In this document: positions 3,780 to 64,000 of the stretch, in pieces | Layout of the letters: every line of letters begins with the position of its first letter | Position numbering within the stretch: position 1 is the first letter of the stretch | Assembly: GCA_020632095.1 (NCBI GenBank) | Contig: JACKGF010000001.1 | Coordinates: 444,937 to 508,936 of the forward strand | Direction of reading: 5' to 3' | DNA: 64,000 nt | DNA from: Candidatus Nomurabacteria bacterium | GTDB lineage: Bacteria > Patescibacteriota > Minisyncoccia > Phycocordibacterales > UBA918 | Made by a program: the position numbers and the translations under genes | Notes under the pieces: generated by a model | What the model was told of the DNA's origin: nothing | Databases searched by the model: none | Seen by the model: the letters and a program-made list of their open reading frames with translations, nothing else

Positions 3780-3867
3780 AGTGGCGACAGCATATCAGAG
3801 TATGTAAAAAGGTCAATAGCAAGCCTTGTCCAACACAAGAATACACTAACCTAACTGTAGACTTTTC

Positions 3868-3900
3868 ATTAGGGGTCTCATTAGGGGTCTGACCCCTAAT
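3868..3900. repeat. REP-like palindrome copy 1, with 12-nt partial duplicate
   Basis: attaggggtctgacccctaat at 3880-3900 preceded by a partial attaggggtct; followed by a conserved 20-mer aactctgtttttataatatc. Confidence 0.7.
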
Positions 3901-3980
3901 GGGATAATTTATAACTCTGTTTTTATAATATCTCTATTAAAGCACCAAGGAAAGGCCTAGGCGGAATAATCTTAAAGGGT

Positions 3981-7608: not shown

Positions 7609-7672
7609 ACGGGCGGGTAAAGTAAAACGGCCGACGCAAAAAGCGCCGGCCGTTTTACTTTACCCGCCCTCA
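7609..7672. terminator. very long perfect hairpin (23 bp plus a further 3 bp), bidirectional terminator
   Basis: gggcgggtaaagtaaaacggccg ... cggccgttttactttacccgccc, loop acgcaaaaagcgc; between convergent rnr and the PEP-CTERM gene. Confidence 0.65.
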
Positions 7673-8533: not shown

Positions 8534-9850
8534 TTAAATTGTTTTTTTATTTTCTCTTTCTACCTCAGTCAGAGCCTCGGTTTTAGCATAAACCCTTAAA
8601 ACATATTCCCTTGATTCACTTCCATATTTTTTCAAATCATTTACATCACTCTCTTTTGCAAAATCGGCAATCGCCAAAAACAACTCCTTGCCTTGAGGAA
8701 GCATATCCAAAGTGATTTCACCAGCAATAATTCTTTTGTGTTCATCAATACAATACAGCCTAACAGCCTCTCCTACTCTAGCTGCCCCAACGTTGTAACC
8801 ACTAATTATTAAAGGTGTCATAAAATCCTGCAGAAATGTAGCTTCACTACTAAACCTCTCTTTAAAATATGAAAAAGCCTCTTCACCCATATGATACTTA
8901 ACTTGCTTCCATAAATCAGGGATAAACTCATTAAACGCAGCCACTTGCTGTGGTATTGAAGCATAAAAATCGCTTAAATTTTTTGCATAAGCGTTTGCTG
9001 TATCAGGTACAAACTGAAAAACTCCCCTCGCTTCTTTTTTACTAGATACATTATTATCAAACTTTGACTCATGCGCACATAGACCCAAAACAAGCCTTTT
9101 AACCTCTAAAGCAATTTCTTCCGGCAAACCACTCTCATCAGAAAAATTAAGATTACTCAAAACATAATCTTTTCGACTCAGACCTTGACCAGGGACTGGT
9201 TTATTGGCGAAATATTCTATTATATCAATGAACCTGATAATTTTTCCACATTCAATTCCTGTAGCCAGCTCTGGTTCTCTACCTAAATCATAAGCGCTAT
9301 TAAAATCATTCACTACCGCACAGCGGTCAGCAATTTGACAGTCTGGGTATTTTTCCTGATGCATTTTCTGCACATAGTCCATCCATTCAGTCACAATTCC
9401 ATTCTCCGGTATACCACCAGCATTTAATGTTCCTGGTGTATATTTATGAAGCTCTGCCTGACCATTCTTGGTCTTATAATCAACAAATTCTCGAAACCTT
9501 ACTGGTTTACCAACCGGTCGATTATTTCCATCTAAAAACAAAATTTCATCTTTACGTAACAAAGCCTCAGCTTTATAACCAGCCACCTCATTCGCAAAAG
9601 TAGGGAGAGATTCACCATTTTGGAGAACATTCTCTATATCACTAGCTGATTCATTATTTACAGTTGCTAAAGCACTTGTTTCAAGCCTTTTTCTAGATGA
9701 AGAATCTTCCCCGACCTGAATCAGCTTATCCAACATTTTTGGCAACACAGTTACACCTAAAGCTGCAGCAATAGCCAATCTCAATGATTGCCTTCGTTTC
9801 TCTGACTTTAGATCTTCTGCCTGACCACCCGAGCCTTTATATGCTTCCAT
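8534..9850 (-). CDS. lytic transglycosylase (SLT-domain) protein
   Basis: CAHESKFDNNVSSKKEARGVFQFVPDTA matches the family-1 ES...GxxQ...P.TA core. Confidence 0.6.
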   Translation of the reverse strand: MEAYKGSGGQAEDLKSEKRRQSLRLAIAAALGVTVLPKMLDKLIQVGEDSSSRKRLETSALATVNNESASDIENVLQNGESLPTFANEVAGYKAEALLRKDEILFLDGNNRPVGKPVRFREFVDYKTKNGQAELHKYTPGTLNAGGIPENGIVTEWMDYVQKMHQEKYPDCQIADRCAVVNDFNSAYDLGREPELATGIECGKIIRFIDIIEYFANKPVPGQGLSRKDYVLSNLNFSDESGLPEEIALEVKRLVLGLCAHESKFDNNVSSKKEARGVFQFVPDTANAYAKNLSDFYASIPQQVAAFNEFIPDLWKQVKYHMGEEAFSYFKERFSSEATFLQDFMTPLIISGYNVGAARVGEAVRLYCIDEHKRIIAGEITLDMLPQGKELFLAIADFAKESDVNDLKKYGSESREYVLRVYAKTEALTEVERENKKTI

Positions 9851-14866: not shown

Positions 14867-15769
14867 CTATTTACCGCCTCTGCCAACGAGCATCGTTACC
14901 GCCTTAGTTACAATCGGTAAAATATCTTCGTAAAAATTCAAATCCAAAATCTCAGCCACTTTGAACCATTTAGCATCGTCCAGTCCACCTTTTTTAATTA
15001 ATTGAATATCCTGATAAGGTGCGCCAGCTAAAAAGTAGTGCACTTGCTTACGGACCTTTCCAACTTCTGGCTGGGTAGCTACGTATTCGTTTTTACCAAG
15101 TTCAGCTTCAATTTGGACTGGTAGACCAATCTCTTCTAACAAAGCGCGAGTAGCACCCTGCTCAACTGTCTCTTCTTCTTTTACCTTACTCTTAGACAGA
15201 GTCCAGTGACCGAATATATCGTGCACTAGAGCAAAATACATCTGTCCTTCATGTTCTGAATAAACCACTGCGCCTGACAAACGTTCAATTGGCATCTCAT
15301 CAAATGGGACATCTTTCTTTCGACGCTTACTCTGCTCTTCTTTACCTGGTTCGCCAATTTCCTTATAAACAGCTCCCAGTACACCATTTACAAATCGACT
15401 ACTGTTGTCTCCACCAAATTGCTTAGCCAATTCAATTGCTTCATTAATAGCTACTTTGGCTGGTACCTCTGAACGCTCAGCAAAAAGAAGTTCAAATAAA
15501 CCAAGTCTAAGAATATTTCTATCGACCGGAGAGATACGTTCAATTGGCCACTCAGGAGCAGCTTTAGCGATTACTAAATCTAGTTCGGGTTGTTTAGACA
15601 TTACTCCATCAAGGAGCTTTTCCATAAACGGCAAATCTGTCTTGTTGGGTGCAAACTCAGTTACGTTGCGATCCAAAACCTCATGCACAACTTTTCGTTC
15701 TAGCGCATTTAAATCCCACTCAAAGAGGGACTGAAGAACGATACTGCGTGATAAATGTCGATTTGCCAT
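14867..15769 (-). CDS. nusB: NusB antitermination factor fused to a C-terminal Nudix-like domain
   Basis: N-terminal ~135 aa NusB (AINEAIELAKQFGGDNSSRFVNGVLGAV); basic linker; C-terminal Nudix fold with degenerate box RALLEEIGL. Confidence 0.7.
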   Translation of the reverse strand: MANRHLSRSIVLQSLFEWDLNALERKVVHEVLDRNVTEFAPNKTDLPFMEKLLDGVMSKQPELDLVIAKAAPEWPIERISPVDRNILRLGLFELLFAERSEVPAKVAINEAIELAKQFGGDNSSRFVNGVLGAVYKEIGEPGKEEQSKRRKKDVPFDEMPIERLSGAVVYSEHEGQMYFALVHDIFGHWTLSKSKVKEEETVEQGATRALLEEIGLPVQIEAELGKNEYVATQPEVGKVRKQVHYFLAGAPYQDIQLIKKGGLDDAKWFKVAEILDLNFYEDILPIVTKAVTMLVGRGGK

Positions 15770-16267: not shown

Positions 16268-16876
16268 TTAATCTTTCACAACCTCAATATTTCCACAAAA
16301 ACTTTGTCTATGTGCAACAGAAAAACCATATTTTTTAATCGCCTCACGATGATTTTTAGTTCCATAGCCCTTATGTCTGGCAAAACCATACGATGGAAAT
16401 TCAGTGTCCAGCTCAAGCATATAATGATCGCGGATGACTTTAGCCATAATTGAAGCTAGCCCAATCACCTTTTCACTACTATCACCCTTGATAATAGTTT
16501 CTTGATTAAATTCTGCTGGTGCTTTAAGCGAACCGTCCAGTTTAATAAAACATTCTTCTGGATTAAGTTCCAACTCCACAATACCAGCCGCAATAGCGCG
16601 TCTAATCGCTGATACAATCCCTTTCGAATCAATCGACTGGGCTGAGACAAACTTCACCGAATACTCTAAAAAACCTTGTTTTGCAAGCTCTTTTGCACTA
16701 TTAAAAATTTCCTCCCGTTTTTTTTCACTCAATTTTTTAGAATCATTCACCCCAGGAATCATCGCCCAATCAAAATCCTGAGCAACTTTCACCAACCCTA
16801 CCGCCACAGGCCCTGCGAGTGGACCCCGCCCCGCCTCATCAATTCCAATCAGGTATTTAGCTTTCATATCTCCCAT
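16268..16876 (-). CDS. rnhB: ribonuclease HII
   Basis: YLIGIDEAGRGPLAGPV; internal start chosen (MGDMKAKYLIG); the 5' part of the ORF as given looks non-coding. Confidence 0.8.
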   Translation of the reverse strand: MGDMKAKYLIGIDEAGRGPLAGPVAVGLVKVAQDFDWAMIPGVNDSKKLSEKKREEIFNSAKELAKQGFLEYSVKFVSAQSIDSKGIVSAIRRAIAAGIVELELNPEECFIKLDGSLKAPAEFNQETIIKGDSSEKVIGLASIMAKVIRDHYMLELDTEFPSYGFARHKGYGTKNHREAIKKYGFSVAHRQSFCGNIEVVKD

Positions 16877-16987
16877 TATACCACAGTGTTGACTTTTCAT
16901 GTATTTTATGTATAATAGTAGAGGCAACAGTCCCCTAAATTCACCCATCATATGGGTATCCGCTATATTATAGAGGAGTAAGTTGAA

Positions 16988-17212
16988 ATGACCCCAAACC
17001 GAATGGCGCACACGGTGCTTAGTTGGATGATAGCACTGTTAGCTGTAGGCGCTATCGTTTCAGTATTCGCTCTAAAAAACTATGAGTACTCAACAGTTTG
17101 CCTCTCCCTAGTAGTTATTGGGATGATATTCATCCATCATCTGCTAGAAAGCCCGGAGAAAGTCGAGGCCGAAGAGCGAGCGAAGGAAGTCGAGACTTCC
17201 GACAAAGAATAA
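16988..17212 (+). CDS. small membrane protein, hypothetical
   Basis: 74 aa with two hydrophobic helices and an acidic tail. Confidence 0.35.
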   Translation: MTPNRMAHTVLSWMIALLAVGAIVSVFALKNYEYSTVCLSLVVIGMIFIHHLLESPEKVEAEERAKEVETSDKE

Positions 17213-17226
17213 TGAGCATCACAGCT

Positions 17227-17257
17227 CGAAAACCCTACCTCTTTTGGTAGGGTTTTA
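17227..17257 (+). terminator. intrinsic terminator
   Basis: aaaaccctacc-tctttt-ggtagggtttt followed by a T-run. Confidence 0.6.
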
Positions 17258-17279: not shown

Positions 17280-17600
17280 GTGAGCACTTCCACTCAGAGC
17301 AAGGTCTCGCTTTAATCCTCCACACTGAGCGAGGGTGTACTAGAAACTGCCATTGCGGAGCCAGCTATAAACAGCGAAGGAAAGACAGAAAATCACAACT
17401 GTTTAAACCACACTGAGCGAGGTCTCACTTTAAAACATCACTGCGGAGAGGATTTGTTTTATAGGGAGCTGAAGTAGGAAATTGTGACTGTCTGAGTGTA
17501 GCGAGTTTCACAATTTCCGCTACGTAAGCGACCATATAAAACAATCCTCGTAGCATTATGATGTTTTAAAGCGAGACCGAGCGATGCTATACTATCCCAA
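17280..17600. promoter_or_regulatory. repeat-rich structured leader upstream of dnaE
   Basis: about 25-nt motif gagcgaggtctcRctttaaaacatc in three direct copies plus one inverted copy; 11-bp hairpin ggaaattgtga/tcacaatttcc. Confidence 0.4.
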
Positions 17601-17602
17601 CT

Positions 17603-20600
17603 ATGCCCTACCCCAAACTAACTTCCGACTTCGTACACCTACACGTCCACTCAATGTATTCCCTCCTCAACGCCGTCCCTACCCCCAAGGAACTGGCCGC
17701 TACTGCCAAAGCCGACAGTCAGGACGCTCTTGCTATCACCGACGCTGGCGCACTTTACGGTGCGATAGATTTTTACAAAGCTTGCACCAAAGAAGAAATA
17801 AAACCCATTATTGGTCTCGATGCCTTTTTAGCACCGCGTACGCGTTTTGATAAAGAAGTAAACATCGACCGCCCACGCTCTCGACTAGTCTTACTAGCCA
17901 AGACTTTCAAAGGCTACCAAAACTTAATTCAACTTGTTACTGATTCAAACCTAAACGGTTTTTATTATCGGCCACGCCTAGACGAGGAGTTACTTGCAAA
18001 ATACAAAGAAGACTTAGTTTGTATCATCCCCTCTTTTGCTGGTGAAGTTGCTCAAGCCCTAAAAGATATTAACCCTGATAAAGCCGCCGAGCGACTCGAT
18101 TGGTACCGTAATACTTTCGGTGAAAATTGCTACTTGGAAATCTCTCATCACCCAGAAATTTTTGACCATGAAGAAAACCAAAAAAGAATTATTGATCTAG
18201 CTAACAAGACTGAAACTCCTTTAGTCGCGGCTCATGATGTTTATTATTTGAAACCAGGAGACCGCTTGGCGCGCGAGACGATGATTAAAATTCAGAGCGG
18301 TGGTGTCGTAGACACCACCGCGGACCACGATGGAGGCGAAAATTTCTCTTTTACTACTCAAGCCGAAATGAAAAAGTGGTTTGCTGACACCCCAGAAGCA
18401 ATTAATAATACAGTCAAGATCGCTGAACAGTGTAACGTTGAAATCGAAATCGGTACTCATTGGTATTTTCCCAATTACATTATTGAAAGTGGCAAAACTC
18501 CAGACGATGAACTAAAAGACATGGCCTACAAAGGCGTCGCTTGGCGCAAGCATGACATAACTGACAAAGTTATTAAAGAGCGAATCGACTATGAGCTAGA
18601 AGTCATTAAAAATAAAGGTTATTCGACCTATTTCTTGGCGGTGGGAGACCTACTACGCGAGGCCCGTGAACGTGGCATCTACACCACTATTCGAGGTTCC
18701 GTAGCTGGTAGTTATGCAACTTACGTGCTTGGTATTACCAACGTAGACCCCTTAGAATACAAACTTCCTTTCGAGCGTTTTCTCAACCCGGAACGACCAT
18801 CCGCTCCAGATATCGATATGGACTTTGCCGATAATAGACGCGATGAAATTATCGAGTACGCCAAAGAGAAATACGGCGCTGACAAGGTCGCTCAAATTGG
18901 TACTTTTGGCACCATGATGGCCAAAGCAGCAGTGCGTGACGTGGCTCGTGCCCTTGGTCATTCCTATTCAACTGGAGATCGTATCTCGAAACTAATCCCG
19001 TTAGGGGCTCAAGGTTTCCCTATGACTATCGATCGGGCTATTGAGATAGAACCAGAACTAGCCGAACTATACAAAAAAGACGCCGAATCACGTGAAGTAA
19101 TCGATCTAGCCAAGCAAATTGAAGGACGCGTACGACACTTAGGTGTTCACGCGGCTGGCGTGGTAATTGCCCCTGAGCCACTAAATCAATTTGTCCCTAT
19201 TCAGCCCGACTCGAAAACTGGAAAGTCGATTACTCAATACGAAATGCACAGTGTGGGTGAAGACGGTGTTGGTTTACTAAAATTTGACTTCCTTGGTATC
19301 AAAAACTTAGCGATTCTAGCTGATGCGGTGAAGCGGGTAAAAAAGATTCGTAACATTGATATTGATATCGAAGACATTCCCCTTGATGATCAAACCACCT
19401 TTGACATGTTGGCTCGTGGTGAAACTATGGGACTCTTTCAACTAAACGGTACTGGCATGACTTCGTTCTTGAAGCAACTTAAGCCAACTACTATTCACGA
19501 CATCAATGCGATGGTAGCCCTCTATCGACCTGGACCGATGGAAATGATTCCGCAGTATATTGAACGTAAACACAACCCAACTCTTGTTTCTTATCTCGAC
19601 CCGCGTCTCGAAGAAATTCTTGATCGTTCTTACGGCGTTATTACTTACCAAGACGACGTGATGATGACCTCAATTAAGCTAGCTGGCTATTCTTGGCTGG
19701 AAGCAGACAAACTGCGTAAAGCGATGGGTAAAAAAGTGCCAGAAATTATGGCCGCGGAAAAGGAAAAACTTTTTAACGGTTTTATTGAACATGGCATGAC
19801 GGAAGCCAAAGCGGAAAAACTTTGGGCTTTAATTGAACCTTTCGCTGCTTACGGATTCAACAAAGCACACGCCGCTAGCTATGGTCGAGTTGCCTATCAA
19901 ACCGCCTATATGAAGGCTAATTTCCCGGTTGAATACATGTCTGCGGTCCTAACTGCCGACTCTGGTGATACTGAACGTATCTCCGACAGTATTCATGAAT
20001 GCGAACGAATGGGTATTGATGTATTGCCACCAGACATCAACGAATCTTTTGAAGATTTTTCAGTAGTACCAGGCACACAGACTATCCGCTTTGGACTAAC
20101 AACCATCAAAAACTTTGGGGCTGGTATAGCTGACATTATCATTACCGAGCGAAAAGCCAACGGGGCCTTCACCTCCATGCAAGATTTTTTAACACGCATT
20201 CACGACCGTGGTCTAAACAAAAAATCTATTGAAGCCTTAGTAACAACTGGAGCTTTCGATAGTTTTGAAGAACGTGGCATACTTTTCACCAACATAGACA
20301 ACATGCTTGCCTACAACCGCGAACAGATAGTAGGTAAAGAATCCAATCAAGACTCACTCTTTGGCGGGATGGCTGACGTACACAACTTGTCTCTCCTACC
20401 AGCTGACAAGGCTACTATGATGCAAAAACTACTATGGGAAAAAGAACTACTTGGCATCTACGTATCAGGCCACCCACTAGACGAATATAAAGCTGAGGTC
20501 GATAAGCGTCCTCATATTTCTCAAGTCAAAAAAAGTTATCAGGGCACGACTGTTGTTACTACTGGTTTGATTGAAGTGGTTAAAGAACTCCTGACCAAGA

Positions 20601-20821
20601 AGGGCGACAAGATGGCTTTTATCAAACTATCAGATCAAGTCGATAGTATCGAAACCGTCACCTTCCCTGAGACCTTCACCCAATACCGCGAACTATTAGT
20701 CCCTGGCACCTGTGTGGCCATCCAAGGCAAATTCAACCTCCGTAACGACGAACCAAGTATTTTGATTGATAAGATAAAATTACTAGGACCAAGTAATTTA
20801 AAAATTGAAACTCTTTCTTAA
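17603..20821 (+). CDS. dnaE: DNA polymerase III alpha subunit
   Basis: PHP domain HLHVHSMYSLL; polymerase core; 1072 aa. Confidence 0.9.
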   Translation: MPYPKLTSDFVHLHVHSMYSLLNAVPTPKELAATAKADSQDALAITDAGALYGAIDFYKACTKEEIKPIIGLDAFLAPRTRFDKEVNIDRPRSRLVLLAKTFKGYQNLIQLVTDSNLNGFYYRPRLDEELLAKYKEDLVCIIPSFAGEVAQALKDINPDKAAERLDWYRNTFGENCYLEISHHPEIFDHEENQKRIIDLANKTETPLVAAHDVYYLKPGDRLARETMIKIQSGGVVDTTADHDGGENFSFTTQAEMKKWFADTPEAINNTVKIAEQCNVEIEIGTHWYFPNYIIESGKTPDDELKDMAYKGVAWRKHDITDKVIKERIDYELEVIKNKGYSTYFLAVGDLLREARERGIYTTIRGSVAGSYATYVLGITNVDPLEYKLPFERFLNPERPSAPDIDMDFADNRRDEIIEYAKEKYGADKVAQIGTFGTMMAKAAVRDVARALGHSYSTGDRISKLIPLGAQGFPMTIDRAIEIEPELAELYKKDAESREVIDLAKQIEGRVRHLGVHAAGVVIAPEPLNQFVPIQPDSKTGKSITQYEMHSVGEDGVGLLKFDFLGIKNLAILADAVKRVKKIRNIDIDIEDIPLDDQTTFDMLARGETMGLFQLNGTGMTSFLKQLKPTTIHDINAMVALYRPGPMEMIPQYIERKHNPTLVSYLDPRLEEILDRSYGVITYQDDVMMTSIKLAGYSWLEADKLRKAMGKKVPEIMAAEKEKLFNGFIEHGMTEAKAEKLWALIEPFAAYGFNKAHAASYGRVAYQTAYMKANFPVEYMSAVLTADSGDTERISDSIHECERMGIDVLPPDINESFEDFSVVPGTQTIRFGLTTIKNFGAGIADIIITERKANGAFTSMQDFLTRIHDRGLNKKSIEALVTTGAFDSFEERGILFTNIDNMLAYNREQIVGKESNQDSLFGGMADVHNLSLLPADKATMMQKLLWEKELLGIYVSGHPLDEYKAEVDKRPHISQVKKSYQGTTVVTTGLIEVVKELLTKKGDKMAFIKLSDQVDSIETVTFPETFTQYRELLVPGTCVAIQGKFNLRNDEPSILIDKIKLLGPSNLKIETLS

Positions 20822-21093
20822 GACAGAAAATTGTATTATTAAAACAATTCTTTTCTAGGAAAATTAATTGGGACAATTTCTTTTGTAAAAATACTCATTT
20901 TAAAATAACTTTAACACAGAGATTTAGCTCGAACATTTGACAATTTACGTCTGCGCGTTAGGATAGTAGATATAGAAATTGTGGTGCTTACCAAACACCA
21001 GAGCAATGCTCGAAGTCAATTTGATTTCCTAATCTGTAATAATGAGCGCTGGTTGGAATACTGACCGGAAACTCGGTGGAACCGCGATCAAGA

Positions 21094-21143
21094 TCGTCCG
21101 AGTAAAAATTCAATTTGTTGAATTTTTACTCGGACGATTTTTT
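21094..21143 (+). terminator. strong intrinsic terminator, possibly the 3' end of a small RNA
   Basis: tcgtccgagtaaaaattcaa-tttg-ttgaatttttactcggacga followed by tttttt; about 270 nt after the dnaE stop. Confidence 0.6.
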
Positions 21144-23199: not shown

Positions 23200-23292
23200 A
23201 ATCAACCAACATGAACCTAGATGATTTGCTAGCGAAATTAAACAAGGAGGTTAACGTATAAGAAGATAGGATGTTCTTGTAGAGTAATAAAA

Positions 23293-23336
23293 AGAAAAGA
23301 CCGGCCACATAGGGCCGGTCTTTTCTTTTTTTACTG
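23293..23336. terminator. bidirectional terminator
   Basis: gaaaagaccggcc...ggccggtcttttc with a T-run; between convergent genes. Confidence 0.6.
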
Positions 23337-29179: not shown

Positions 29180-29201
29180 AAAGAGCTGAATTTAGATAAT
29201 G

Positions 29202-29233
29202 AAAAGTGCGTGGCCTTCGGCCGCGCACTTTTC
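29202..29233. terminator. bidirectional terminator
   Basis: aaaagtgcgtggcc-ttcg-ggccgcgcactttt. Confidence 0.6.
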
Positions 29234-29254
29234 ATTATCTACAACTTAGTAGAC

Positions 29255-37818: not shown

Positions 37819-37837
37819 CCGGACTAGCCAATAAAAA

Positions 37838-37885
37838 TAATACCTAAGGAAAAGTTAACTTTTCCTTAGGTATTATTTTTATTGG
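37838..37885. terminator. long palindromic hairpin, 3' of tRNA-Thr
   Basis: taatacctaaggaaaagttaacttttccttaggtatta with A/T runs either side. Confidence 0.6.
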
Positions 37886-37924
37886 CTCTCTTCCTTCGTC
37901 ATCGAGTCACTTCTCTCGTATCGG

Positions 37925-37997
37925 AGCCACCTGTCAGATTCGAACTGACGACCTGCGGTTTACAAAACCGATGCTCTACCAACTGAGCTAAGGTGGC
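37925..37997 (-). tRNA. tRNA-Thr (anticodon UGU)
   Basis: hand-folded cloverleaf: acceptor GCCACCT/AGGTGGC, D-loop AGTTGGTA, anticodon loop TT-TGT-AA, T-arm GTCAG-TTCGAAT-CTGAC; CCA not encoded. Confidence 0.85.
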
Positions 37998-53466: not shown

Positions 53467-54498
53467 TTACGGTAGATAGCTTGTGTTTTTAGCTACCTGA
53501 TTGTCAATATCGTAATTAATAATATCCTTGGCATCGTTAGGGTCCATATTTATAGCCTTTGCCACCAACTCTGCAAAAGCGTCTCGTGCGTACAAATTAG
53601 TATTATTATTGAAGTAGTCATCTACAGCATTACCTTTTAGAGCAGTTATGTAAGGATGGAGCCAGACGTAATATGCTTCCCAGTCATTCCCAAATTGTTG
53701 AGCTACAATATCAACTTCCAATTGGCTTCCACTACTATAAACATCTTCCTTACCACTTAAATTATTGATTACGACTGCCCATCCCCAAATCGGGGTATTC
53801 ATACCAGTAGTTCCATTTCTTTTTGCAAACAAGTGTATTTCATCAATTACGTCAGGAATAACTGTGACAGTTTGAGTGATCATCGCAAATGCAGAAATTG
53901 ACACACCAAAGTCAGTCGCCAATAAATTCAGAACTTCAGTAGTGGTGGTACTGTTGTAACTTTTACTAAAAGAACCATTAGTATTTGTAAATAAAGTAAC
54001 TAATGATTTAGAATTTGGCAGGTCAATTTCAATAGCAATTTTAGTCACACTTGGTAGAGAAACATTTGAAAAATTGGTTACAACCTGCGTTCCAACAGGA
54101 GCTGATGGTGAAGTTAGTAACTGAGTATAATTGCTAGCTATCCACCCCTGCGGACCACCAGCAAATCTAACTTTGTACCACAGTATCCCTCCTGAGACCT
54201 GAGGATCATCTATAATAATAGCCACTTTATCCTTAGGAACAACTTGTCTAACTGGATTAAAAATGCCTGGTCCAGTCCTAACATTTAAATTATCAGTTAG
54301 CTTTACCCAACTAGCAATCAACGGTGATCTGGGGCTTTGTTGTGCTGGTTGCACAGAACCTAGCATCATGTTTGCTACAGAAGAGTAAGCGTCTCCATTG
54401 TCAGCCTTAGCGACACCCGGATTTAAACAAATTAAAAGTGCCAACATGGTTAAAACTGAACCTGTTGCAAGATAGTTATTTTTAATTAAAGCCTTCAT
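53467..54498 (-). CDS. secreted SH3b-domain protein
   Basis: signal peptide; bacterial SH3-like NVRTGPG...YKV segment. Confidence 0.5.
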   Translation of the reverse strand: MKALIKNNYLATGSVLTMLALLICLNPGVAKADNGDAYSSVANMMLGSVQPAQQSPRSPLIASWVKLTDNLNVRTGPGIFNPVRQVVPKDKVAIIIDDPQVSGGILWYKVRFAGGPQGWIASNYTQLLTSPSAPVGTQVVTNFSNVSLPSVTKIAIEIDLPNSKSLVTLFTNTNGSFSKSYNSTTTTEVLNLLATDFGVSISAFAMITQTVTVIPDVIDEIHLFAKRNGTTGMNTPIWGWAVVINNLSGKEDVYSSGSQLEVDIVAQQFGNDWEAYYVWLHPYITALKGNAVDDYFNNNTNLYARDAFAELVAKAINMDPNDAKDIINYDIDNQVAKNTSYLP

Positions 54499-54642
54499 AA
54501 GAATAATGTTATAATTAGATAATTTATAAACTTAGTAATATTATACGCAAAACAATTAATGGTGTTAGCTAAAAATATATTATTTGGGGATAGTCCTTTT
54601 TAGCATCTGATTACTCTAAATTTTTAACGAGTACCTTAATCC

Positions 54643-57600
54643 CTAAATCCCCCCGCCCCCGCCAGCACCACCGCCACCGGCTTGGTGGAATATGCGGACC
54701 TCCAGAGCGTCGAGATTGAGGGTATTGCCACCGGGTTGAGCGGTCACCCTTAGTCTGAAGAGTGCATTGGAGAAGTTGGCTGGAGTCCAACTGCGACCCC
54801 ATTTGTCTGACGCTCCCCCCACGGTGTAGACCACGTCGGTACCAATGAGGGCTGGGGTGGCTTTAGCGGTGGTGTATGAGCTACCACCATCCCAAGAGAG
54901 TGAGACATCGACGGTGCCACTGGCAGTAGTACCGGAAATGTCTAGTTTAACGGCAATTCCTTCGATGGTATTAGAACCAGGGATATTGAAGCCAAAGGTA
55001 TCGTAGCTTTGTTTGAGGTTGATGGTTGCCGCAGTAGCGTAGACACCATCGGAGAGAAAGGCGTTGGATGGATTGGTCCACTCATTGTCTATATCACCAG
55101 TGGCGGTTGGTCGGAAGAAGTTAACGTCAGCGGCGATGTTTTCGCCGTCGACTGGTTGTCCGACTTCCCCACCTCCATCATCGCCACCCCCAAAGACATC
55201 ACCATCACCATCCGGTGGAGCGCCGCCAATGCGGTCAGACTTGCTACCAGCGCCGTGTTGGTTACGGATATGTTGAATATAGTCTACGGTGTTAGTCATG
55301 GCGGTCGAAACATCTGCTGTGATACCAATAGATGGGAGACTAATGACAACCGCGGCGTTACCGTTGATGGAGACAGTGTCTCCGATTAGGAGGTAGTCGG
55401 CACTGGAGGTAGCACTGAAGTCGCTACTGAAAGTGATAGCGCCGTGTTGACCGTTGATGGTTAAGATACCGGACGCATCTATCTGTGTGTCACCACCGTC
55501 TAGGAGACGGTCACTGTTGTTGTCTTTGTATAGTCTGAGATTAATAAGGTCACTAGTGTCTAGCTTCTGGACTCCAGAGAGAGTGAAGACTAGGTCGGTG
55601 ATAGTGATAGTTGATTCGGCTTCGAGGTTGAAGGCGAAGAGAGCGGTGTCGGTTTTGTTTTGGAAACTGAATTCATTGTCGACTTGGCCAAGGGTATGGT
55701 TGGTGGTGGTCGCGTTGACTAAAATTTCGATGAAGTTCCAACAAGTGTTGTTGCCGGCGTCGTAACCAAAAGGATTGTATAGGTCAGCTGGACAACCGTT
55801 ATTATCTTTGACATTTACGTAGTTGACGGTTTGTTGCGTACCTGGTACGTAAAAGTTGGCTTGCGTACCAGGAGTGGAAGAACGGAGCCAGACGTATGAT
55901 CCGCTGGTGCCTTCGAGAGAAATATCTTGGAAGGTGGAGGTGGCACTTGCGGGGAGTTGGAGAGAGGTAGAGGCGAGCATGGTGAGGGTACCGGTGGTAG
56001 TGACTGGGTCGGTGAGGATGACAGATTGAGAACTACTGCCCATACCACTCTGGTTGGTGATGGTTAGACTGGCGAAGGATGAGGTGGCGGTCATGGAGCC
56101 GGTGAGGGTTTGAGGGGTGGTGCCGGAGAGGGTGAGGAGAGATTCGAGGTCATGACGCGGTTGGTGCCTGTTTGCGCCACCGCCACTAAGAGACCGTTGC
56201 CATAGGTGACAGAGGTCCAAGAATTTGCCTCAGAAGCTGCTCGGGCAGTCCAGGTGATACCGTCGGGAGAGGTCATGACGCGGTTGGTGCCAGAGTCAGA
56301 AACTACCACAAAAGGCCGTTGCCGTAAGTAACCGATAGCCATTGGTTTGATTCAGCCGCAGTACGCGCTGTCCAGGTGGTGCCGTCGGGGGAGGTCATGA
56401 CGCGGTTGGTGCCCCAAGCTACCGCCACGAAGAGACCATTGCCGTAAGTGACAGATGTCCAAAAATTTGCTTCTGCTGCAGAACGCGGTGTCCAAGTGAT
56501 ACCATCTGGGGAGGTCATGACGCGGTTGGTGCCATTACCTGACACTGCCACAAAGAGGCCGTTGCCGTAGGTGACAGAGTACCAAGAGTTTGCCTCAGCG
56601 GCGGAGTGTGATGTCCAGGTGATACCATCTGGGGAGGTCATCACTTGGTTGGTGCCGTTACTAGACACAGCCACGAAGAGACCGTTGCCGTAGGTGACAG
56701 ATCCCCAAAAATTTGCTTCCGCTGCGGAGCGGGCGGTCCAATCAATACCGTCAGGAGATGTCATTACCTTTCCGCTTCCCGACACCGCCACAAAGAGACT
56801 GTTACCGTAGGTGACGGAATACCAATCACTTGTTTCAGCCGCTGTACGGGCAGTCCAGGTGATACCGTCGGGAGAGGTCATGACGCGATTGGTGCCGTCT
56901 GAAGATACCGCCACAAAGAGACCGTTGCCGTAGGTTACAGAACGCCAAAGGTTTGCTTCAGCGGCCGATCGCGCACTCCAACTCCTCCCAGCCCCGTTAT
57001 CGAAGGTGCCGTCGGTGTTGGTGTAGTCGCCAGTGACCGAGAGATGTTGAGGGCCACTACTATTGATGAAGTACCAATCGAGAAATCTGAAGTACTGGCG
57101 TTGTTTGAAAAGTCTTAGTCCCTACTCCAGTGAAAGAGACGTTCCTTAGAGCAGAAGTGCCAGTCATGGTGCCAGTGGCGGTTTGGTCGTTGTCGCCATT
57201 TAAGGTGACGAGTGAGTGGGAGGTCATGACGCGGTTAGTGCCGTCTTGTGATATCGCCACAAGTAACCGTTGCCGTAGGTGACAGAGTACCACGTGTTTG
57301 CTTCAGTGGCAGAGCGAGCGGTCCAGGTGATGCCGTCGGGTGAGGTCATGACGCGGTTGGTGCCGGTATTTGAAACTGCCACAAATAAGCCATTGCCGTA
57401 GGTGACGGAGCGCCACTGATTGGCCCCTGCAGCCGAACGAAGAGTCCAAGTGATGCCGTCAGGGGAGGTCATAACTTGGTAGGCGCCAGAATATGACACT
57501 GAAACAAAGAGACCATTACCGTAGGTGACAGATAACCAAGTAACAGCACTAACAGAGTGAGAGGTCCAGGTGATGCCGTCGGGGAGGTCATAACCGTATT

Positions 57601-60600
57601 AAATCCAACAGCCACAAATAAGCCGTTGCCGTAGGTGACGGAATACCAAGAAATCGCAGCAGCAGCCGTACGAGCGGTCCAATTAATACCGTCGGGGGAG
57701 GTCATGACTTGATTAGTACCGTCCCAGGACACCGCAACAAAGAGGCCGTTGCCGTAGGTGACGGAATACCATTGATTTGCTTGTGCGGCAGAGCGAGCGG
57801 TCCAGGTGATGCCGTCGGGGGAGGTCATGACGCGGTTGGTGCCATTTGTAGATACGGCCACAAAGAGGCCGTTGCCGTAGGTGACGGAATTCCAAGAGTT
57901 GGCCGCGGTGGCCGCGCGAGCGGTCCAGGTGATGCCGTCGGGGGAGGTCATGACGCGGTTGGTGCCTGAGTTTGAGATAGCCACAAAAAGGCCGTTGCCG
58001 TAAGCGACGGAACGCCATGAATTTGCCTCCGCCGCTGACTGCGAAGTCCAGTGACTACCTGCCCCATTATTAAAGGTTCCTTCGTTGGTGTAGTTGCCAG
58101 AAATCGCTAGTTGCTCTGGCGCGACGACAGTCGCGCCAGCATTGATGGACACATCATTCGCCAACACCTTCGTCGCCGAAAATGTCTTCGTCCCCGCCCC
58201 GGTGAAGACCGCGTTACCGAGGTGGGTGGTGCTAGAGGCGGTATCACTAATACTCTGCGCACTAGCGCCGTTGAAGGTAGTGGTGCCGGTCTGTGAGGTC
58301 ATGACGCGGTTGGTGCCACTATCTGCAACCGCCACAAAGAGGCCGTTGCCGGATGTGACGGATCGCCATTGGTTTGCTTCAGCCGCCGCGCGAGCGGTCC
58401 AAGTGATGCCGTCAGGAGAAGTCATGACACGATTACCATCTGTTGTAGCATTACACCACGTCGTATTATAACCACACGCCACTGCAACAAAGAGCCCATT
58501 GCCGTAGGTGACGGAGTACCAACTATTTGCCTCAGCGGCAGAGCGAGCGGTCCAATTGATACCGTCAGGAGAAGTCATGGTGCGGTTGGTGCCGTTTTGT
58601 GCTACTGCTACAAAGAGGCCGTTGCCGTAGGTGACGGAATTCCAGCTGTTAGCTTCAGCGGCCGCTCGGGCGGTCCAGATGGTTCCGTCGGGGGAGGTCA
58701 TAACTTGATTAGTACCGCCCCAAGACACAGCCACAAACAGACCGTTGCCGTAAGTGACTGAGGACCATGAATTGGCTTCAGCCGGTGTACGGTCAGTCCA
58801 AGTAATGCCGTCGGGGGAGGTCATTACATCTCCAGTACTAGCCCCATAAGAATCATTATATGGCGCCACAGCCACAAACAGGCCGTTGCCGTAGGTGACG
58901 GAGCTCCATTTTCTTACAACAGCGGCCGAGCGGGCCGTCCAGGTGGTGCCGTCGAGGGAGGTCATGACGCGGTTGGTGCCAGATTCTGCCACCGCCACAA
59001 ACAGGCCGTTGCCGTAGGTGACTGAGGTCCAAGAGTTTGCCTCAGCCGCCGAGCGAGCGGTCCAGGTGATGCCGTCGGGGGAGGTCATGACGCGGTTGGT
59101 GCCAGATTCTGCCACCGCCACAAAGAGACCGTTGCCGTAGGTGACGGAATTCCAAGTGTTTGCCTCAGCAGCGGAGCGAGCGGTCCAAATACCTGCATAT
59201 GCATCATAAGTACTATTATTAGTAAACTGTCCACTCACACTAAGCTCTTCAGCTACAACAACCCCATCATCATTCACTAGATTGGTAGTGGAGGCAGTGG
59301 TATTGATTGTTTTATTATTGGTACCAGTAAAAGAAAGTGTGTTGAAGGCTGATGTGCTTGTGGCTACACCATTAATTATGACTGAATTGTCACCAAGAGC
59401 GGTAACTAGGCTACTGGAAGAAGCAGTCATAACACGGTTGGTGCCGTCAGATGATACAGCTACAAAAGTACCGTTGCCGTAGGTGACTGAAAGCCATGTG
59501 TTTGCTTCAGTAGCAGAACGAGTGGTCCAGGTGATGCCGTCGGGAGAGGTCATAAGTGTTCCACAAGGATCAATATAAGATGAATCTAGATTACATACAG
59601 CAACGAAAAGGCCGTTGCCGTAGGTGACTGATTGCCACTGATTTGCCTCTGCAGCAGAGCGAGCAGTCCAGGTGATGCCGTCGGGGGAGGTCATAAGATT
59701 ATCACAAAGACTGTAAATCAAATCATATGCACACACCGCCACAAACAGGCCGTTGCCGTAGGTGACGGAGTACCAAGCATTTGGTGAGGTAGCAGCCCGG
59801 GCGGTCCAAGTGCTACCGTCGGGGAGGTCATAACTTGGTAGGCGCCAGAATATGACACTGAAACAAAGAGACCATTACCGTAGGTGACAGATAACCAAGT
59901 AACAGCACTAACAGAGTGAGAGGTCCAGGTGATGCCGTCGAGGGAGGTCATGACGCGATTGGTGCCGTCAGCAGATACAGCCACAAAGAGGCCGTTGCCG
60001 TAGGTGATGGAGGTCCATTGGTTTGCCTCGGTGGCAGCACGGGCAGTCCAGGTGACACCATCGGGGGAGGTCATGACGCGGTTGGTGCCGTCAGCAGATA
60101 CAGCCACAAACAGACCGTTGCCGTAGGTGACGGATTTCCATGAGTTAGCTTCAGCCGCTGCACGAGCCGTCCAAGTGATGCCGTCAGGGGAGGTCATGAC
60201 GCGGTTGGTGCCGGTGTTTGAAACCGCCACGAAAAGGCCGTTGCCGTAGGTGACGGAGAACCAGGAGTTTGCCTCCGCCGCACTCCTCGCCGTCCAAACC
60301 GTCCCCTCATTCCCAAAAGTCGTCGTCCCACTATTATGAGTAAAGGTACCATTGTTAGTATAGTCACCCGTAATCGTAATGTTATCGGCCGGAGCGACTA
60401 AGGTAGCGCCAGCGTCGATAGTGATGTCTGTAGTGGTGGCATTGGTAGCAAAGGTGTAAGTACCAGTTCCCCCGAACTTGAGGTTACCAATTGGTTGGGT
60501 AGCAGTGATAGTCTTCCCTGTCGTACTAGCATTAAAGTAGATAGTGCCGTGGTTACCGACTAGAGCCGTCGAAGAAGCTGATAGATTACCAGCGAGTGTA

Positions 60601-61328
60601 GTGGTACCACTAGTGAGATAAGTAGCATCGGTGGCAATATGCATTGAACCGTCTACCCCACTGCCAGCGTTGCCGTAGACAGTAACCTCTCCGCCAGGGA
60701 TGAAGAGTTTGCCAGTGTTTATATATAGTTTATTGCCAGCGTTGACATCAAACGTAGCCGCCGTGGATGAGGCGTTGTATTGAATGTCGCTGTCATTGTC
60801 GTTATCGTAGAAAGCGAGGTCTCTGATACTGGTGGAGGTACTAGTGGTGGCGCCTTCGTGGGAGATGATGACTCTGTTTTGGTAGATATTTAAGTCAGGA
60901 ATACTGTTCACGGTACTGGAAGACTTAGTGAATATAGAGCCTCGGACAGAAGCATTACCATCTACCCAAGCGACCACTGGTGTGCCCGTTGCCAGTGAAG
61001 AGAACGTGAAGTACCAGTCGCCACTGGCGTCAGTGGTGGTGGAGTGGATAGAAGGTGGAGTTGAAGTACCGACCGCTAGCTTGATAGTTTCAGAAGCAAT
61101 TGGAGTAATACCTTCGTCTGAGTAGAGGGTTCCCGAAACCGTGAGAGCATGAGCTTGGGTTGTAAACAAGAAAAAAAGAAGAGTAGTGAGGGAGAATTTG
61201 AAGAAAGTAGACAGAACGGAAGATGTTCCAACTTTATTATCACAAGTTAAAGTGTTTTTGAAACAGCCAAACAAATCAGAGAAAATCTGACTGAAGGTAT
61301 TTTTTAGTTTTGGATTAAAATTTATCAT
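54643..61328 (-). pseudogene. giant Asp-box repeat surface protein gene (~6.7 kb) broken into at least 7 ORFs by frame breaks
   Basis: signal peptide at the 61328 end; dozens of ~37-aa repeats TNRVMTSPDGITWTARSAAEANSWxSVTYGNGLFVAV (S-x-D-x-G-x-T-W); overlapping ORFs 59718-61328, 57469-59742, 57224-57499, 57060-57293, 56303-56914, 56091-56342 and 54643-56220; Gly-rich C-terminus. Confidence 0.6.
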
Positions 61329-61335
61329 AATTTAC

Positions 61336-64000
61336 CTATTGGTTTGATGTTTCAACTACTACTTCGGGGACTTCTGGTAACAATTCTTCGACTTCCATCT
61401 CTGGCTCTTCGACTACTTCCTCTATTACTTCTGGCTCTGTATTTTCCTCTTCTATTTCTATCGGGGTCTCATCCTCAACTATCTCCCCTACTTCCTCAAC
61501 CACACTTTCCTCATTCACCACTTCTACTTCGACTGTTTCCTCCTCGGTCTCCTCGCCAGTCGTGTAACTTTCTTCCTCTGGTATAACTTCTTCAGGTGGA
61601 GGCGGCGGAGGTGTACTATCCTCCACCACCGTCGTTCCACCGCCGCCTCCACCACTCGACTCTTGACTCTTATTAAGGATTTGTCGCAAATCATCGGCGT
61701 TGACACAAACCCCATCGACACACAATTCCTCCCTCACCTCCACCCGCTCCGCCTTCAAAGTAAACACCGACAACACTCCATCAATAAAGTTATTAGCCAG
61801 CTTCACCATGCGTTGCCAGACGGTTTCTTTGGTGTTGGTGGTGATAGCTTGATTAGTGTAATCAGTCGCCGTGGTACTCGCGGTCATCAGAAGTGAAGCC
61901 AACATATTTTGTCCTTGTGCATCAAAGTAACGGTAACCAGCCTGCACAAACATCACCACCTGCCCTACCTGCACTGTTTGGTTGTTGGCGAGTTTGAGTT
62001 TCTGGCTTGGGGTTCTTGCTAATTTATCTAGAGCCGCTTTTTGAGCCGCTGCGAGAGCAAGAGCTTCCGCTTCTTTGATACGGGCGTCAGTGGTGGTGGC
62101 AATTAATGGTACACACGCTTCTTCCCCCGAGGCGTTACCCGCTCCAAAGTAGCAACCGTCGTTGATACGCGGGTCATTGTCACGGTTGATTGGCGTGAAG
62201 ACTGGTTCTACTAGGTCATCACCAAACTGATTAATATATGTATTGGAATATTTACGAGTATCATCAAAGTCTTCCAGCGCAATACCGATAGTGACTCCAG
62301 TACTGGTCGCTTTCATGGCGATACCTGGTAGTGAAGACATCATCAGTTGATCACCTTTCTTGATTGGTCCAGCTTCGGTAGAGAGCTTAACTGGCACACG
62401 TCCTGATAGAGCGACTGGGAAGGCAGTTTCACCGGCGTTGAGTGAAGTGTCGTCTGATCCAAGCAAGAGACCCGGCTTGGTGGAGACGACTCCGAGGATT
62501 GGCGTGGTACTGTCCTTGGTGGCACGATTGATCGAGAGACCACCGGCTAGCGTGACGATTTCACCTGGTTCTAGGTCGGCACTGGAGAAATAGTTTTCAG
62601 CCAAGTCGGAGTTACCGGCGTAGGTAGAGACGGAAGCAATCCGGCCTTTGACGGTAGCTAAACAACTACCATCATCATCAACACAGAGTCCACCGTTACC
62701 AATCTGGAGTCCAGCCCATTTGCTGGTGGTGCCGTCACCAATGGTGGTAGTACCGTGAGCAGAGACGGTAAAGACGGAGGTACCACCGTTTTGGAAGTCG
62801 AGGTATTTGGAGGTGGTACTAGAGAAGCTACCACCGGAGTTACCGAAGTTCATCAGAAGACCAGTGCCAGTGAAGGTAGAGGAAGCGTGGAAGAGTTTCA
62901 TCAGAGCCGCACTGGTGATGTATGAAGAATAACCACGGATAGCGTTACCTTGGGAGGTACCGTCAGTTTGACCGTAGATACCAGCCGGTTCGAAAGTTCC
63001 ACCAGCATCTCCAGCTGTAGTACCACGAACCCCGAAAGTCCGAGCAAAGCCAGAGAGCGCAGTGTTTTCGCCTTGGGTGTTGGTGCCACGGTCGGTTTGG
63101 ACTTCGAGACCACGGATGGTGTTGCCGTAGACGGTGCTGTCTTTGATGCGGAACATGCTACCGACGGTAGTAGTAGTGGCAGTGTTGGCAGTGTTCAAGT
63201 AGAAGCGATTACCGTACTGGACGGCTGAGGCGACGCTGTTTTGCGTGTCGAGGTATTGATCGAGACCGACCACGCCCGCCCCCGAGAAGGCGGTGTTTTG
63301 GATTGATAATCTTGCGTTAGGAGATGAAGTTCCTATCCCAATATTACCAGTTGAAAGAGTAGTACCAGTACCATCAACCCCCGTACCAAAGATAAGGTTA
63401 CCGATATTTAACACATCATCAGCTGTTGTACTAAAAGCGTCGATGTCGTAACCAATGAAGATACCGCGGTCGACAGTGAGGGCATTGTCGGCGGTTTTGT
63501 ATCCGATGGCGATAGTGCCGGTACCGTTGTTGTTGTAGAGAGTATTGTATCCAAGAGCGTTGTTAAACGAACCGGTAATGTTTGCAATTAAAGCTCCGTT
63601 ACCAAATGAGTTGTTGTTGCCTCCTGAAGTGTTTGAGAATAAAGAAGCGTAACCAAAAGCTGTGTTGTTGCTTCCGGTGGTGTTTGAGTAGAGGGCTGAG
63701 TTACCAAATGAGTTGTTGTTGCTTCCGGTGGTGTTTGAGTAAAGGGCTTGTATACCAAAGGCATTACTGGAAGAACCAGTGGTGTTTTGGTGTAGCGTGT
63801 TATAGCCAATAGCATTGTTGAATGAACCAGAAGTGTTTGAATGTAGGGATTCAAAGCCAAGAGCATTGTTTCCTGAACCACTCATACCAACTCCTTGTAA
63901 GGCTTCTAAACCGACGGCGAAGTTATTATCTCCATCGACTAGATTACTCATAGCTCCGTCTCCAATAGCGTAGTTGTAGGTGGCGCCGTTGGTGAAAGAG
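61336..64000 (-). CDS. tail-fibre-like repeat protein (partial; N-terminus outside the window)
   Basis: degenerate ~14-aa repeats (NNAxGYNTLxxNTTGS...); poly-Gly and poly-Pro linkers; acidic C-terminal tail; the frame continues past 63951 to the window edge. Confidence 0.55.
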   Translation of the reverse strand, partial: SFTNGATYNYAIGDGAMSNLVDGDNNFAVGLEALQGVGMSGSGNNALGFESLHSNTSGSFNNAIGYNTLHQNTTGSSSNAFGIQALYSNTTGSNNNSFGNSALYSNTTGSNNTAFGYASLFSNTSGGNNNSFGNGALIANITGSFNNALGYNTLYNNNGTGTIAIGYKTADNALTVDRGIFIGYDIDAFSTTADDVLNIGNLIFGTGVDGTGTTLSTGNIGIGTSSPNARLSIQNTAFSGAGVVGLDQYLDTQNSVASAVQYGNRFYLNTANTATTTTVGSMFRIKDSTVYGNTIRGLEVQTDRGTNTQGENTALSGFARTFGVRGTTAGDAGGTFEPAGIYGQTDGTSQGNAIRGYSSYITSAALMKLFHASSTFTGTGLLMNFGNSGGSFSSTTSKYLDFQNGGTSVFTVSAHGTTTIGDGTTSKWAGLQIGNGGLCVDDDGSCLATVKGRIASVSTYAGNSDLAENYFSSADLEPGEIVTLAGGLSINRATKDSTTPILGVVSTKPGLLLGSDDTSLNAGETAFPVALSGRVPVKLSTEAGPIKKGDQLMMSSLPGIAMKATSTGVTIGIALEDFDDTRKYSNTYINQFGDDLVEPVFTPINRDNDPRINDGCYFGAGNASGEEACVPLIATTTDARIKEAEALALAAAQKAALDKLARTPSQKLKLANNQTVQVGQVVMFVQAGYRYFDAQGQNMLASLLMTASTTATDYTNQAITTNTKETVWQRMVKLANNFIDGVLSVFTLKAERVEVREELCVDGVCVNADDLRQILNKSQESSGGGGGGTTVVEDSTPPPPPPEEVIPEEESYTTGEETEEETVEVEVVNEESVVEEVGEIVEDETPIEIEEENTEPEVIEEVVEEPEMEVEELLPEVPEVVVETSNQ

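Follow-up and report, generated by a model that had tools for sequence, protein, structure and literature searches.

The window, by which we mean the whole 64,000-nt stretch of DNA analysed, belongs to a Patescibacteria (CPR, Paceibacteria-like) genome and carries at the locus described here rpmF, rnhB, a 74-aa ORF with a canonical terminator, a repeat region and dnaE, in this order. The rnhB gene occupies 16268-17011 on the minus strand. The 74-aa ORF (16988-17212, plus strand) has no Pfam match and is co-directional with dnaE, and its intrinsic terminator, an 11-bp stem followed by a T run, was located at 17229-17256 on the plus strand by an inverted-repeat and terminator scan. The dnaE gene (17603-20821, plus strand) encodes a Pfam-confirmed DNA polymerase III alpha subunit of 1072 aa; a search of 185,579 species representatives gave uncultured Patescibacteria MAGs as its best matches, with at most 84% identity. 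In most relatives only a short spacer separates rnhB from dnaE, the two genes standing back to back. On the minus strand at 14867-15769, a single 300-aa ORF contains both a NusB domain and a NUDIX hydrolase domain.

A promoter scan (site 17565-17593, with TG) identified an extended -10 box of dnaE, TGCTATACT, at 17585-17593 on the plus strand. The box is located directly 3' of the hairpin described below and nine bases ahead of the dnaE ATG, and in the same scan the -35 position falls inside the 3' arm of the hairpin. There is no terminator between the hairpin and dnaE. Comparison of the locus sequences shows TGYTATAMT ahead of the dnaE start in nearly all relatives, which suggests that the principal dnaE promoter lies downstream of the hairpin. 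A dnaE mRNA starting from this box should be almost leaderless, with a leader of only a few nucleotides. A preliminary description of 17280-17600 had seen no credible ORF there, and we find the same: only a 43-aa minus-strand ORF and an out-of-frame 88-aa ORF overlapping dnaE are present.

Repeat boxes and a long hairpin upstream of dnaE

The preliminary description had counted a motif of about 25 nt three times in direct orientation and once inverted. The full motif occurs once only, at 17415-17439, even when 3 mismatches are allowed. What recurs, at two of the direct sites, is its 13-nt core, GGTCTCRCTTTAA, found at 17303-17315 and 17421-17433 on the plus strand and at 17566-17578 on the minus strand (3 matches against 0.23 expected; none of 100 shuffles reached 3) and nowhere else in the 64 kb. 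The similarities are real, but the four copies are not equivalent boxes: they are the arms of one hairpin and two relics. The spacings between them are irregular (30, 88 and 150 nt).

The first relic (17290-17319, plus strand), recognised from direct and inverted repeats, is a partial copy of the 5' end of the element, CCACTCAGAGCAAGGTCTCGCTTTAA. About 26 nt are common to this copy and the motif (17290-17315, 85% identity), and its segment GGTCTCGCTTTAA is a perfect complement of 17566-17578. The second relic (17320-17407, plus strand) is a degenerate left half made of the 5' flank, the left arm and the left apex side (GAAAATCACAACTGTTT), and its partner arm is missing. With the left halves of the elements in the window and at two related dnaE loci, L004 and L011, it shares 65-72% identity. 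The motif copy near 17323, which lies in this relic, has only CCACACTGAGCGAGG in common before the sequences diverge, with 73% identity over 41 nt. The second relic and the full copy might be read as a nested insertion into an older apex; we rejected this reading because what follows the full copy on its 3' side is the ancestral promoter context, which the window shares with L004 and L011.

The complete foldback element, defined by inverted repeats and folding, is an imperfect hairpin of 176 nt at 17410-17585 on the plus strand, with 61 modelled pairs. The plus strand folds with -79.8 kcal/mol (z = -10.6) and the minus strand with -75.0 kcal/mol (z = -10.4). The hairpin consists of three nested inverted repeats, 17421-17440/17559-17578 (20 nt, 95% complementary), 17454-17466/17532-17544 and the inner 11-bp stem GGAAATTGTGA/TCACAATTTCC at 17477-17487/17508-17518. 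The inverted copy and the long-range pairing around an 11-bp hairpin, both noticed earlier, are confirmed by this fold, in which the inverted copy is the 3' arm. The region had also been called structured, and this is upheld by a stability far above that of shuffled sequences, by compensatory changes in two relatives and by covariation among 57 family members (see below). The internal loops of the fold are all small, and a large central bubble is absent. The whole copy is an inverted repeat, from which no distinct terminal motif can be separated.

The apex of the hairpin (17479-17516, plus strand) carries the family signature AAAT-TGTG-ACTGTCTGAG-TGTA-GCGAGTT-(T)CACA-ATTT. Its parts are an outer stem and the conserved CUGUYUGA and GAGUU, between which a 2-bp mini-stem carries a GNA-type loop. 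The hairpin is followed on its 3' side by GAGCGATGCTATACT, without a T run. A direct repeat of GAGCGA flanks the hairpin both in the window and in L011. GAGCGA is also found inside the relics, and the flanking repeat may therefore be internal to the element and is only suggestive of a target duplication. One Logan contig (SRR8206192, L001), the only other assembly with this exact DnaE protein, has its position 1 at window position 17480, inside the apex stem, because the palindrome breaks short-read assembly.

The hairpin at related dnaE loci

We compared 80 related Patescibacteria dnaE loci, 77 of which lack the element. The same hairpin is found at the identical position only in L004 (530-707) and L011 (3804-3983). 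The preliminary description had named a generic scattered repeat, or a lack of conservation ahead of dnaE in relatives, as what would count against it; this is largely what is seen, although the element is kept at this place in L011, the nearest relative, and in L004. The three copies are ~68% identical in blastn, and 27 of the 62 predicted pairs are changed on both sides and still paired. On the plus strand, G·U cells outnumber A·C cells by 10 to 3. The parts conserved in sequence are the apex and the internal loops TTGCGRAR (5' arm) and YGTAGCA (3' arm). The DnaE proteins of the carrier genomes are 78-84% identical. In both L004 and L011, a small plus-strand ORF lies directly upstream of the hairpin and is not homologous to the 74-aa ORF of the window.

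A neighbour-joining tree of DnaE groups the three carriers in a single clade that also contains the non-carriers L002, L003 and L006, and this points to an old insertion followed by losses. This distribution implies that the window organism, L011 and L004 probably inherited the dnaE copy from their common ancestor. There is one apex site in the 64-kb window and none elsewhere in 0.87 Mb of the relatives' loci. Other long hairpins, unrelated to this one, were observed in the same rnhB-dnaE spacer of L002 (3864-3972), L019 (~3880-3975), L018 (~3880-3975) and L016/L017, the last being tandemly repeated units upstream of dnaE. The rnhB-dnaE spacer seems prone to acquiring palindromes or terminators.

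A family of hairpins with a common apex

We defined the family by an AAAT-N4-ACTGTYTGAG-N4-8-GCGAGTT-N4'-ATTT apex on a long hairpin. The pattern was derived from the copies in the window, L004 and L011, which therefore fit it by construction. The search pattern taken from the apex was AAATNNNNACTGTYTGAGN{4,8}GCGAGT, and the apex positions that it fixes cannot be counted as evidence of conservation. Matches were found in at least 120 metagenome contigs and in two IMG/VR contigs, with host contig GC of 24 to 61% among the matches listed. In 125 of 130 pattern hits, the complement of the four free bases followed by ATTT, neither of which is specified by the pattern, comes next. With this complementary partner and a long hairpin in every case, the hits are not chance matches. 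The host range includes CPR bacteria, Bacteroidota and Fusobacteriota. BLAST against plasmids found copies on Aureibacter tunicatorum pAT6, on Ilyobacter polytropus pILYOP01 (seven places) and in Chondrinema, and the family hardly occurs in the 72,556 plasmids or in the 2.9 million viral contigs searched. The pAT6 copy (L204, 1480-1640) lies within a type I-D CRISPR-Cas operon, between cas7d and cas5d, and this sequence also turns up as an IMG/VR 'viral' contig (L203).

A covariance model, R1, was built from the three CPR copies only. R1 finds gut and environmental members over model positions 1-178 with 40-55 bits (E 1e-7 to 4e-11), and its matches include copies that the apex pattern did not select. 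In these unselected copies the closing A-U pair flips to U-A, the Y can be A, and the mini-hairpin reaches up to ~8 bp. In an alignment of 57 members, base-paired cells make up 90.4% (34-49% when the partners are slid as a control), double changes occur at 55 of 61 pairs, and the covariation score is 0.54 against about 0.1; these figures lean towards structure because the alignment was fitted to R1 and the members are related. The apex loop is mostly GNA (C-GNA-G), and all four bases (T, A, C, G) are found in front of AGCG. Elements across the family are 170-400 nt long. To judge from the aligned sequences, the stems differ by lineage yet are complementary, and the apex is a conserved module of ~22 nt composed of CUGUYUGA, a short variable hairpin and GAGUU(U).

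Other recurrent features include an internal-loop module with GTTAAG opposite TA, which occurs on either arm and always on the plus strand. Tandem G·A pairs are possible at the apex, as in a K-turn reading, in which the bulge would be 5 nt. Rfam 15 gave no match for the window at the gathering score and chance hits only at E <= 10, no match for 20 family loci, and none for 12 family loci at E <= 1. In the literature, the apex sequence matched unrelated primers only, and a keyword search returned nothing relevant. The hairpin family is widespread and apparently uncatalogued. We find this cross-phylum family more interesting than the dnaE copy itself.

The folded strand and the nature of the molecule

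The folded strand of the window hairpin is the plus strand, which has the same sense as dnaE and the small ORF. Among family members, the plus strand folds better in 95 of 106. G·U pairs on the plus strand outnumber A·C pairs by 146 to 46 (98 to 41 outside the apex), and this excess indicates that the plus strand is the one that folds. By direct motif count, a T-rich 3' module with overlapping hairpins, TTTTGGTTACTTTT, is found on the plus strand in 50 of 97 members and on the minus strand in 4. The strand preference in folding, the G·U excess and the plus-strand modules indicate a single-stranded molecule of plus sense, and the T tracts, together with placement at gene 3' ends, favour RNA. 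Three points keep a role at the DNA level in view: the GNA loops, the concerted evolution of the arms (see below), and a 9-nt stretch that resembles pT181 ssoA in its CS-6 region. Stable mini-hairpins of DNA are the better-known setting of three-base GNA loops. The association of strand bias with GC skew is weak (52 against 33) and in the wrong direction for a lagging-template signal.

The window copy does not have the T-rich 3' module and is thus not a canonical intrinsic terminator. In the approximately half of members that have it (L082-L203, e.g. L086 ~8700-8760 in minus orientation; L204 1590-1640), the module reads YTTTTGGTNMCTTTTG...CAAAAGNAC and contains two overlapping covarying stems, which may fold either as an H-type pseudoknot or as alternative hairpins. 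On the right, the repeat unit has a sharp boundary at the end of this module; its left boundary is variable.

Placement and signs of mobility

Family copies are intergenic, and contigs often contain two or three of them in both orientations. Neighbouring genes are divergent in 7 cases, convergent in 23 and tandem in 35, so that the divergent arrangement is under-represented. The neighbours are ordinary and unrelated, with 226 Pfam families among 142 neighbouring proteins and no recurrent gene. No transposase, TnpB, RAYT, HUH or Rep gene was found among these 142 proteins, and no parent IS with the same ends was found in the plasmid collection. Since no neighbouring gene recurs, we rejected an identity as omega-RNA of TnpB, IscB-associated RNA, bridge RNA or a RAYT/REP system. 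Copies are often arranged in pairs ~200-350 nt apart, a minus copy and then a plus copy with their 5' ends facing (L123 2238-2729, L106 210-708, L116 7864-8346, L148 4535-5042 and L103 968-1297).

A gut subfamily has an outer terminal inverted repeat of roughly CAATGTCATTTAGATAAG and 8-bp target duplications, whose sequences are unrelated to one another (TTCATGAA in L121, CCAGCACA in L133, and an approximate one in L135). These features suggest that the family is, or was at one time, mobile in the manner of a non-autonomous MITE-like element. Terminal inverted repeats and target duplications are MITE hallmarks and are seen in this one subfamily; for the CPR copies there is only the suggestive GAGCGA repeat. 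Within the gut subfamily, the two arms of L145 share ~10 substitutions relative to L089, L121 and L124 (CCCAGGGAGCGGGGAGCAAAGCAAGG compared with CCAAGGAAGAGGGGAGAGAAGCAACG), which indicates that the arms evolve in concert. This may reflect arm-to-arm conversion, and compensatory change in general could arise from such gene conversion rather than from selection on each pair.

Comparison with known elements

The family resembles MITE or foldback elements such as the Correia elements of Neisseria (CREE) in being non-autonomous, intergenic and multi-copy, with a hairpin over the whole length and no transposase inside or among the neighbouring genes. Correia elements contain a central IHF site, and Correia RNAs act as terminators and as RNase III substrates. 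The conserved central site of the hairpin family recalls this IHF site. Unlike in Correia elements, however, it is the apex rather than the termini that is conserved across phyla, the stems diverge by compensating changes, and the host range is very wide, extending over the GC range given above. With REP, BIME and REPIN sequences, which are thought to stabilise or terminate transcripts, the family shares dispersed extragenic palindromes, enrichment at gene 3' ends and sometimes a tandem or inverted paired arrangement. It differs from them in being five to ten times longer, in the absence of a RAYT among the neighbouring genes, and in having its signature in the loop rather than a conserved 5' GTAG-type terminal motif.

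Like an intrinsic terminator, the window element is a hairpin downstream of a co-directional gene, and a T-rich plus-strand tract comes after about half of the family members. The window copy departs from a terminator in lacking a T run, in having a stem ~six times the normal length, and in not being called by the terminator scan. A rod shape, a length of ~170-190 nt and a largely double-stranded character are shared with 6S RNA, from which the family is set apart by the absence of a large central bubble and by the multiple copies in other genomes. We rejected a 6S RNA identity on the missing bubble and on the lack of any Rfam 6S match even at E <= 10. Hammerhead and other small ribozymes were rejected by inspection: compared with CUGAUGA...GAAA, the apex CUGUYUGA...GAGUU has an extra base and G for A14, there are two helices, and Rfam has no match. 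Coding potential of the apex was also rejected, as the variable loop lengths break any reading frame across it.

The single-strand origins of rolling-circle plasmids offer a further comparison. The ssoA terminal-loop consensus CS-6 is TAGCGT, and the ssoA RSB sequence is TTATGCCGAGAAAATTT (PMC4598088). As in ssoA (palA), the family forms a strand-specific imperfect hairpin of ~150-200 nt with a short motif at its tip, which in the window reads GTAGCGAG; the apex has TAGCGA at 17499-17504 where CS-6 has TAGCGT, and in the family the position of the T before AGCG is variable. In contrast to ssoA, the family is chromosomal, intergenic and nearly absent from plasmids, its loop base is variable, and the window element has no RSB. 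R1 gave no score for the ssoA of pT181 or pC194. Homology to ssoA was rejected, since the local similarity covers just 9 nt and the model gives no score. In pT181 (L207), palA/ssoA at ~3860-3885 reads ACTTGTTAGCGAGTTGG, which is near the apex ACTGTTT..AGCGAGTTT with the mini-hairpin removed; this could be chance.

Proposed role of the element at dnaE

We consider it somewhat probable, judging from the sequence comparisons, that the repeats are one intact and two decayed copies of a widespread foldback element and that the intact copy serves as an insulating RNA hairpin. The most likely role at dnaE would be that of an RNA hairpin with which the upstream transcription unit ends and which insulates the dnaE promoter. 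The element would be transcribed from upstream, where it would form the tail of the preceding unit, or else from a weak promoter immediately 5' of its own sequence. The resulting RNA would fold as a long hairpin, by which the transcript is ended, blocked or processed, and the near-leaderless dnaE promoter at the foot of the 3' arm would thereby be insulated. The apex would be a putative binding site for a widely conserved factor. The position next to dnaE would simply be a place where the insertion was tolerated or useful, and the copy has kept its hairpin form in an organism whose intergenic regions are small. The adjacent relics, which have no partner arm, have decayed, in contrast to the retained hairpin. 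Counting against a terminator role, the upstream small ORF already has its own terminator.

The element could also act as single-stranded DNA, the hairpin forming on a displaced strand or on the lagging-strand template, like ssoA or a hairpin transposition intermediate, and the apex binding RNA polymerase, primase or a transposase. We regard this account as unlikely. It would fit the similarity of the apex TAGCGAG to the CS-6 TAGCGT, where pT181 palA reads TTAGCGAGTTGG, as well as the mostly C-GNA-G loops, the arms evolving in concert and the strand-specific folding. The variable loop base, however, means that TAGCG is not conserved, and the CPR model R1 scores ssoA no higher than generic hairpins. 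The near absence from plasmids and viral contigs, the weak wrong-way strand bias and the lack of a HUH or Rep gene also speak against it.

Another reading, to which we give a similarly low probability, is a selfish insertion without host function, whose palindrome is kept by the rarity of deletion and by arm-to-arm conversion. The MITE hallmarks of the gut subfamily, the decayed relics, the patchy presence in the DnaE clade and a placement typical of tolerated insertions all agree with this reading. Such an insertion does not readily account for the conservation of the apex and of the TTGCGRAR and YGTAGCA loops between genomes with DnaE identities of only 78-84%, while the neighbouring relics decayed. 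In addition, we infer that the approximately three-fold excess of G·U over A·C is more than mutational bias would produce.

A direct role in dnaE expression appears slightly less probable again. Here the hairpin would belong to a structured 5' leader of dnaE or to a small RNA gene, transcribed from a distal promoter; that it would control the stability or translation of dnaE mRNA, for instance through RNase III cleavage or a bound protein, we hold to be just as doubtful. The hairpin shares the sense of dnaE and adjoins the gene with no terminator between, the plus strand is favoured, and compensatory changes are found in three genomes at exactly the same position. Weak -10-like sequences are also seen just 5' of the hairpin in all three on visual reading of the alignment. 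Against these points, the strong extended -10 box between the hairpin and the ATG, found ahead of dnaE in nearly all relatives, suggests that the main dnaE transcript starts downstream of the hairpin, the element is missing from 77 of the 80 related loci, and members elsewhere adjoin unrelated genes in all orientations.

An array of DnaA boxes or iterons that binds an initiator next to dnaE, as the preliminary description had suggested, is hardly credible: only the repeats themselves and their proximity to a replication gene favour it, and the absence of DnaA boxes and of a skew switch, the irregular spacing, the lack of dnaA or dnaN, the loci without the element and the unrelated neighbours of other copies contradict it. 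No TTATCCACA-like DnaA box (one mismatch allowed) lies within 3 kb, the nearest being at 13757 and 28087, and the whole window contains 15 such boxes against 16.6 expected. GC skew stays negative to the left and right of 17 kb; the cumulative skew falls steadily through this point and has its minimum near 54 kb. No dnaA or dnaN gene is found near the region. An iteron array was rejected since there is only one full 25-mer and the others are truncated relics or the opposite hairpin arm. The element has no specific link to replication initiation. From 54000 to 64000, GC rises from ~0.40 to 0.47-0.56, GC skew becomes positive, and large minus-strand proteins with EPTP/DUF6242 repeats are encoded. 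The cumulative minimum near 54 kb may be due to these genes rather than to an origin.

Implications of the family

Returning to the foldback family as a whole, we can put forward a broader and improbable proposal. The apical module could be a portable, strand-specific ligand-binding domain, carried across phyla by mobile foldback elements and domesticated repeatedly. Its ligand may be a universally conserved factor, e.g. RNA polymerase or an enzyme of priming or processing, and the likeness of the apex to the ssoA CS-6 loop is a hint of such a factor. The module may have spread from CPR bacteria to Bacteroidota, Fusobacteriota and gut Firmicutes, with the dnaE copy as one domestication. If the apex does bind a conserved host factor, the family would be a new example of mobile DNA that distributes a functional RNA or ssDNA module, and an undescribed, widespread class of structured RNA or ssDNA element.

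For the window itself the result is mostly deflationary, as the repeats are not a replication-control array. Its by-product is a searchable apex signature and a covariance model for a strand-specific, mobile-looking family without an Rfam entry. Such elements would account for many of the structured but otherwise orphan intergenic regions of metagenome-assembled genomes. They are also a cause of broken assemblies, as in the Logan contig for the window dnaE, which begins in the apex. Ilyobacter polytropus DSM 2926 and Aureibacter tunicatorum NBRC 107587 are cultured carriers, which makes the family experimentally testable.

Other palindromes are present in the window. A perfect 62-nt palindrome with 31-nt arms and no loop is located at 37826-37887, 38 nt from a tRNA gene (37925-37997, minus strand). 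Intergenic hairpins with stems of 18-27 bp are found at 7611-7669, 21090-21141, 23289-23330 and 29193-29241, and they resemble bidirectional terminators.
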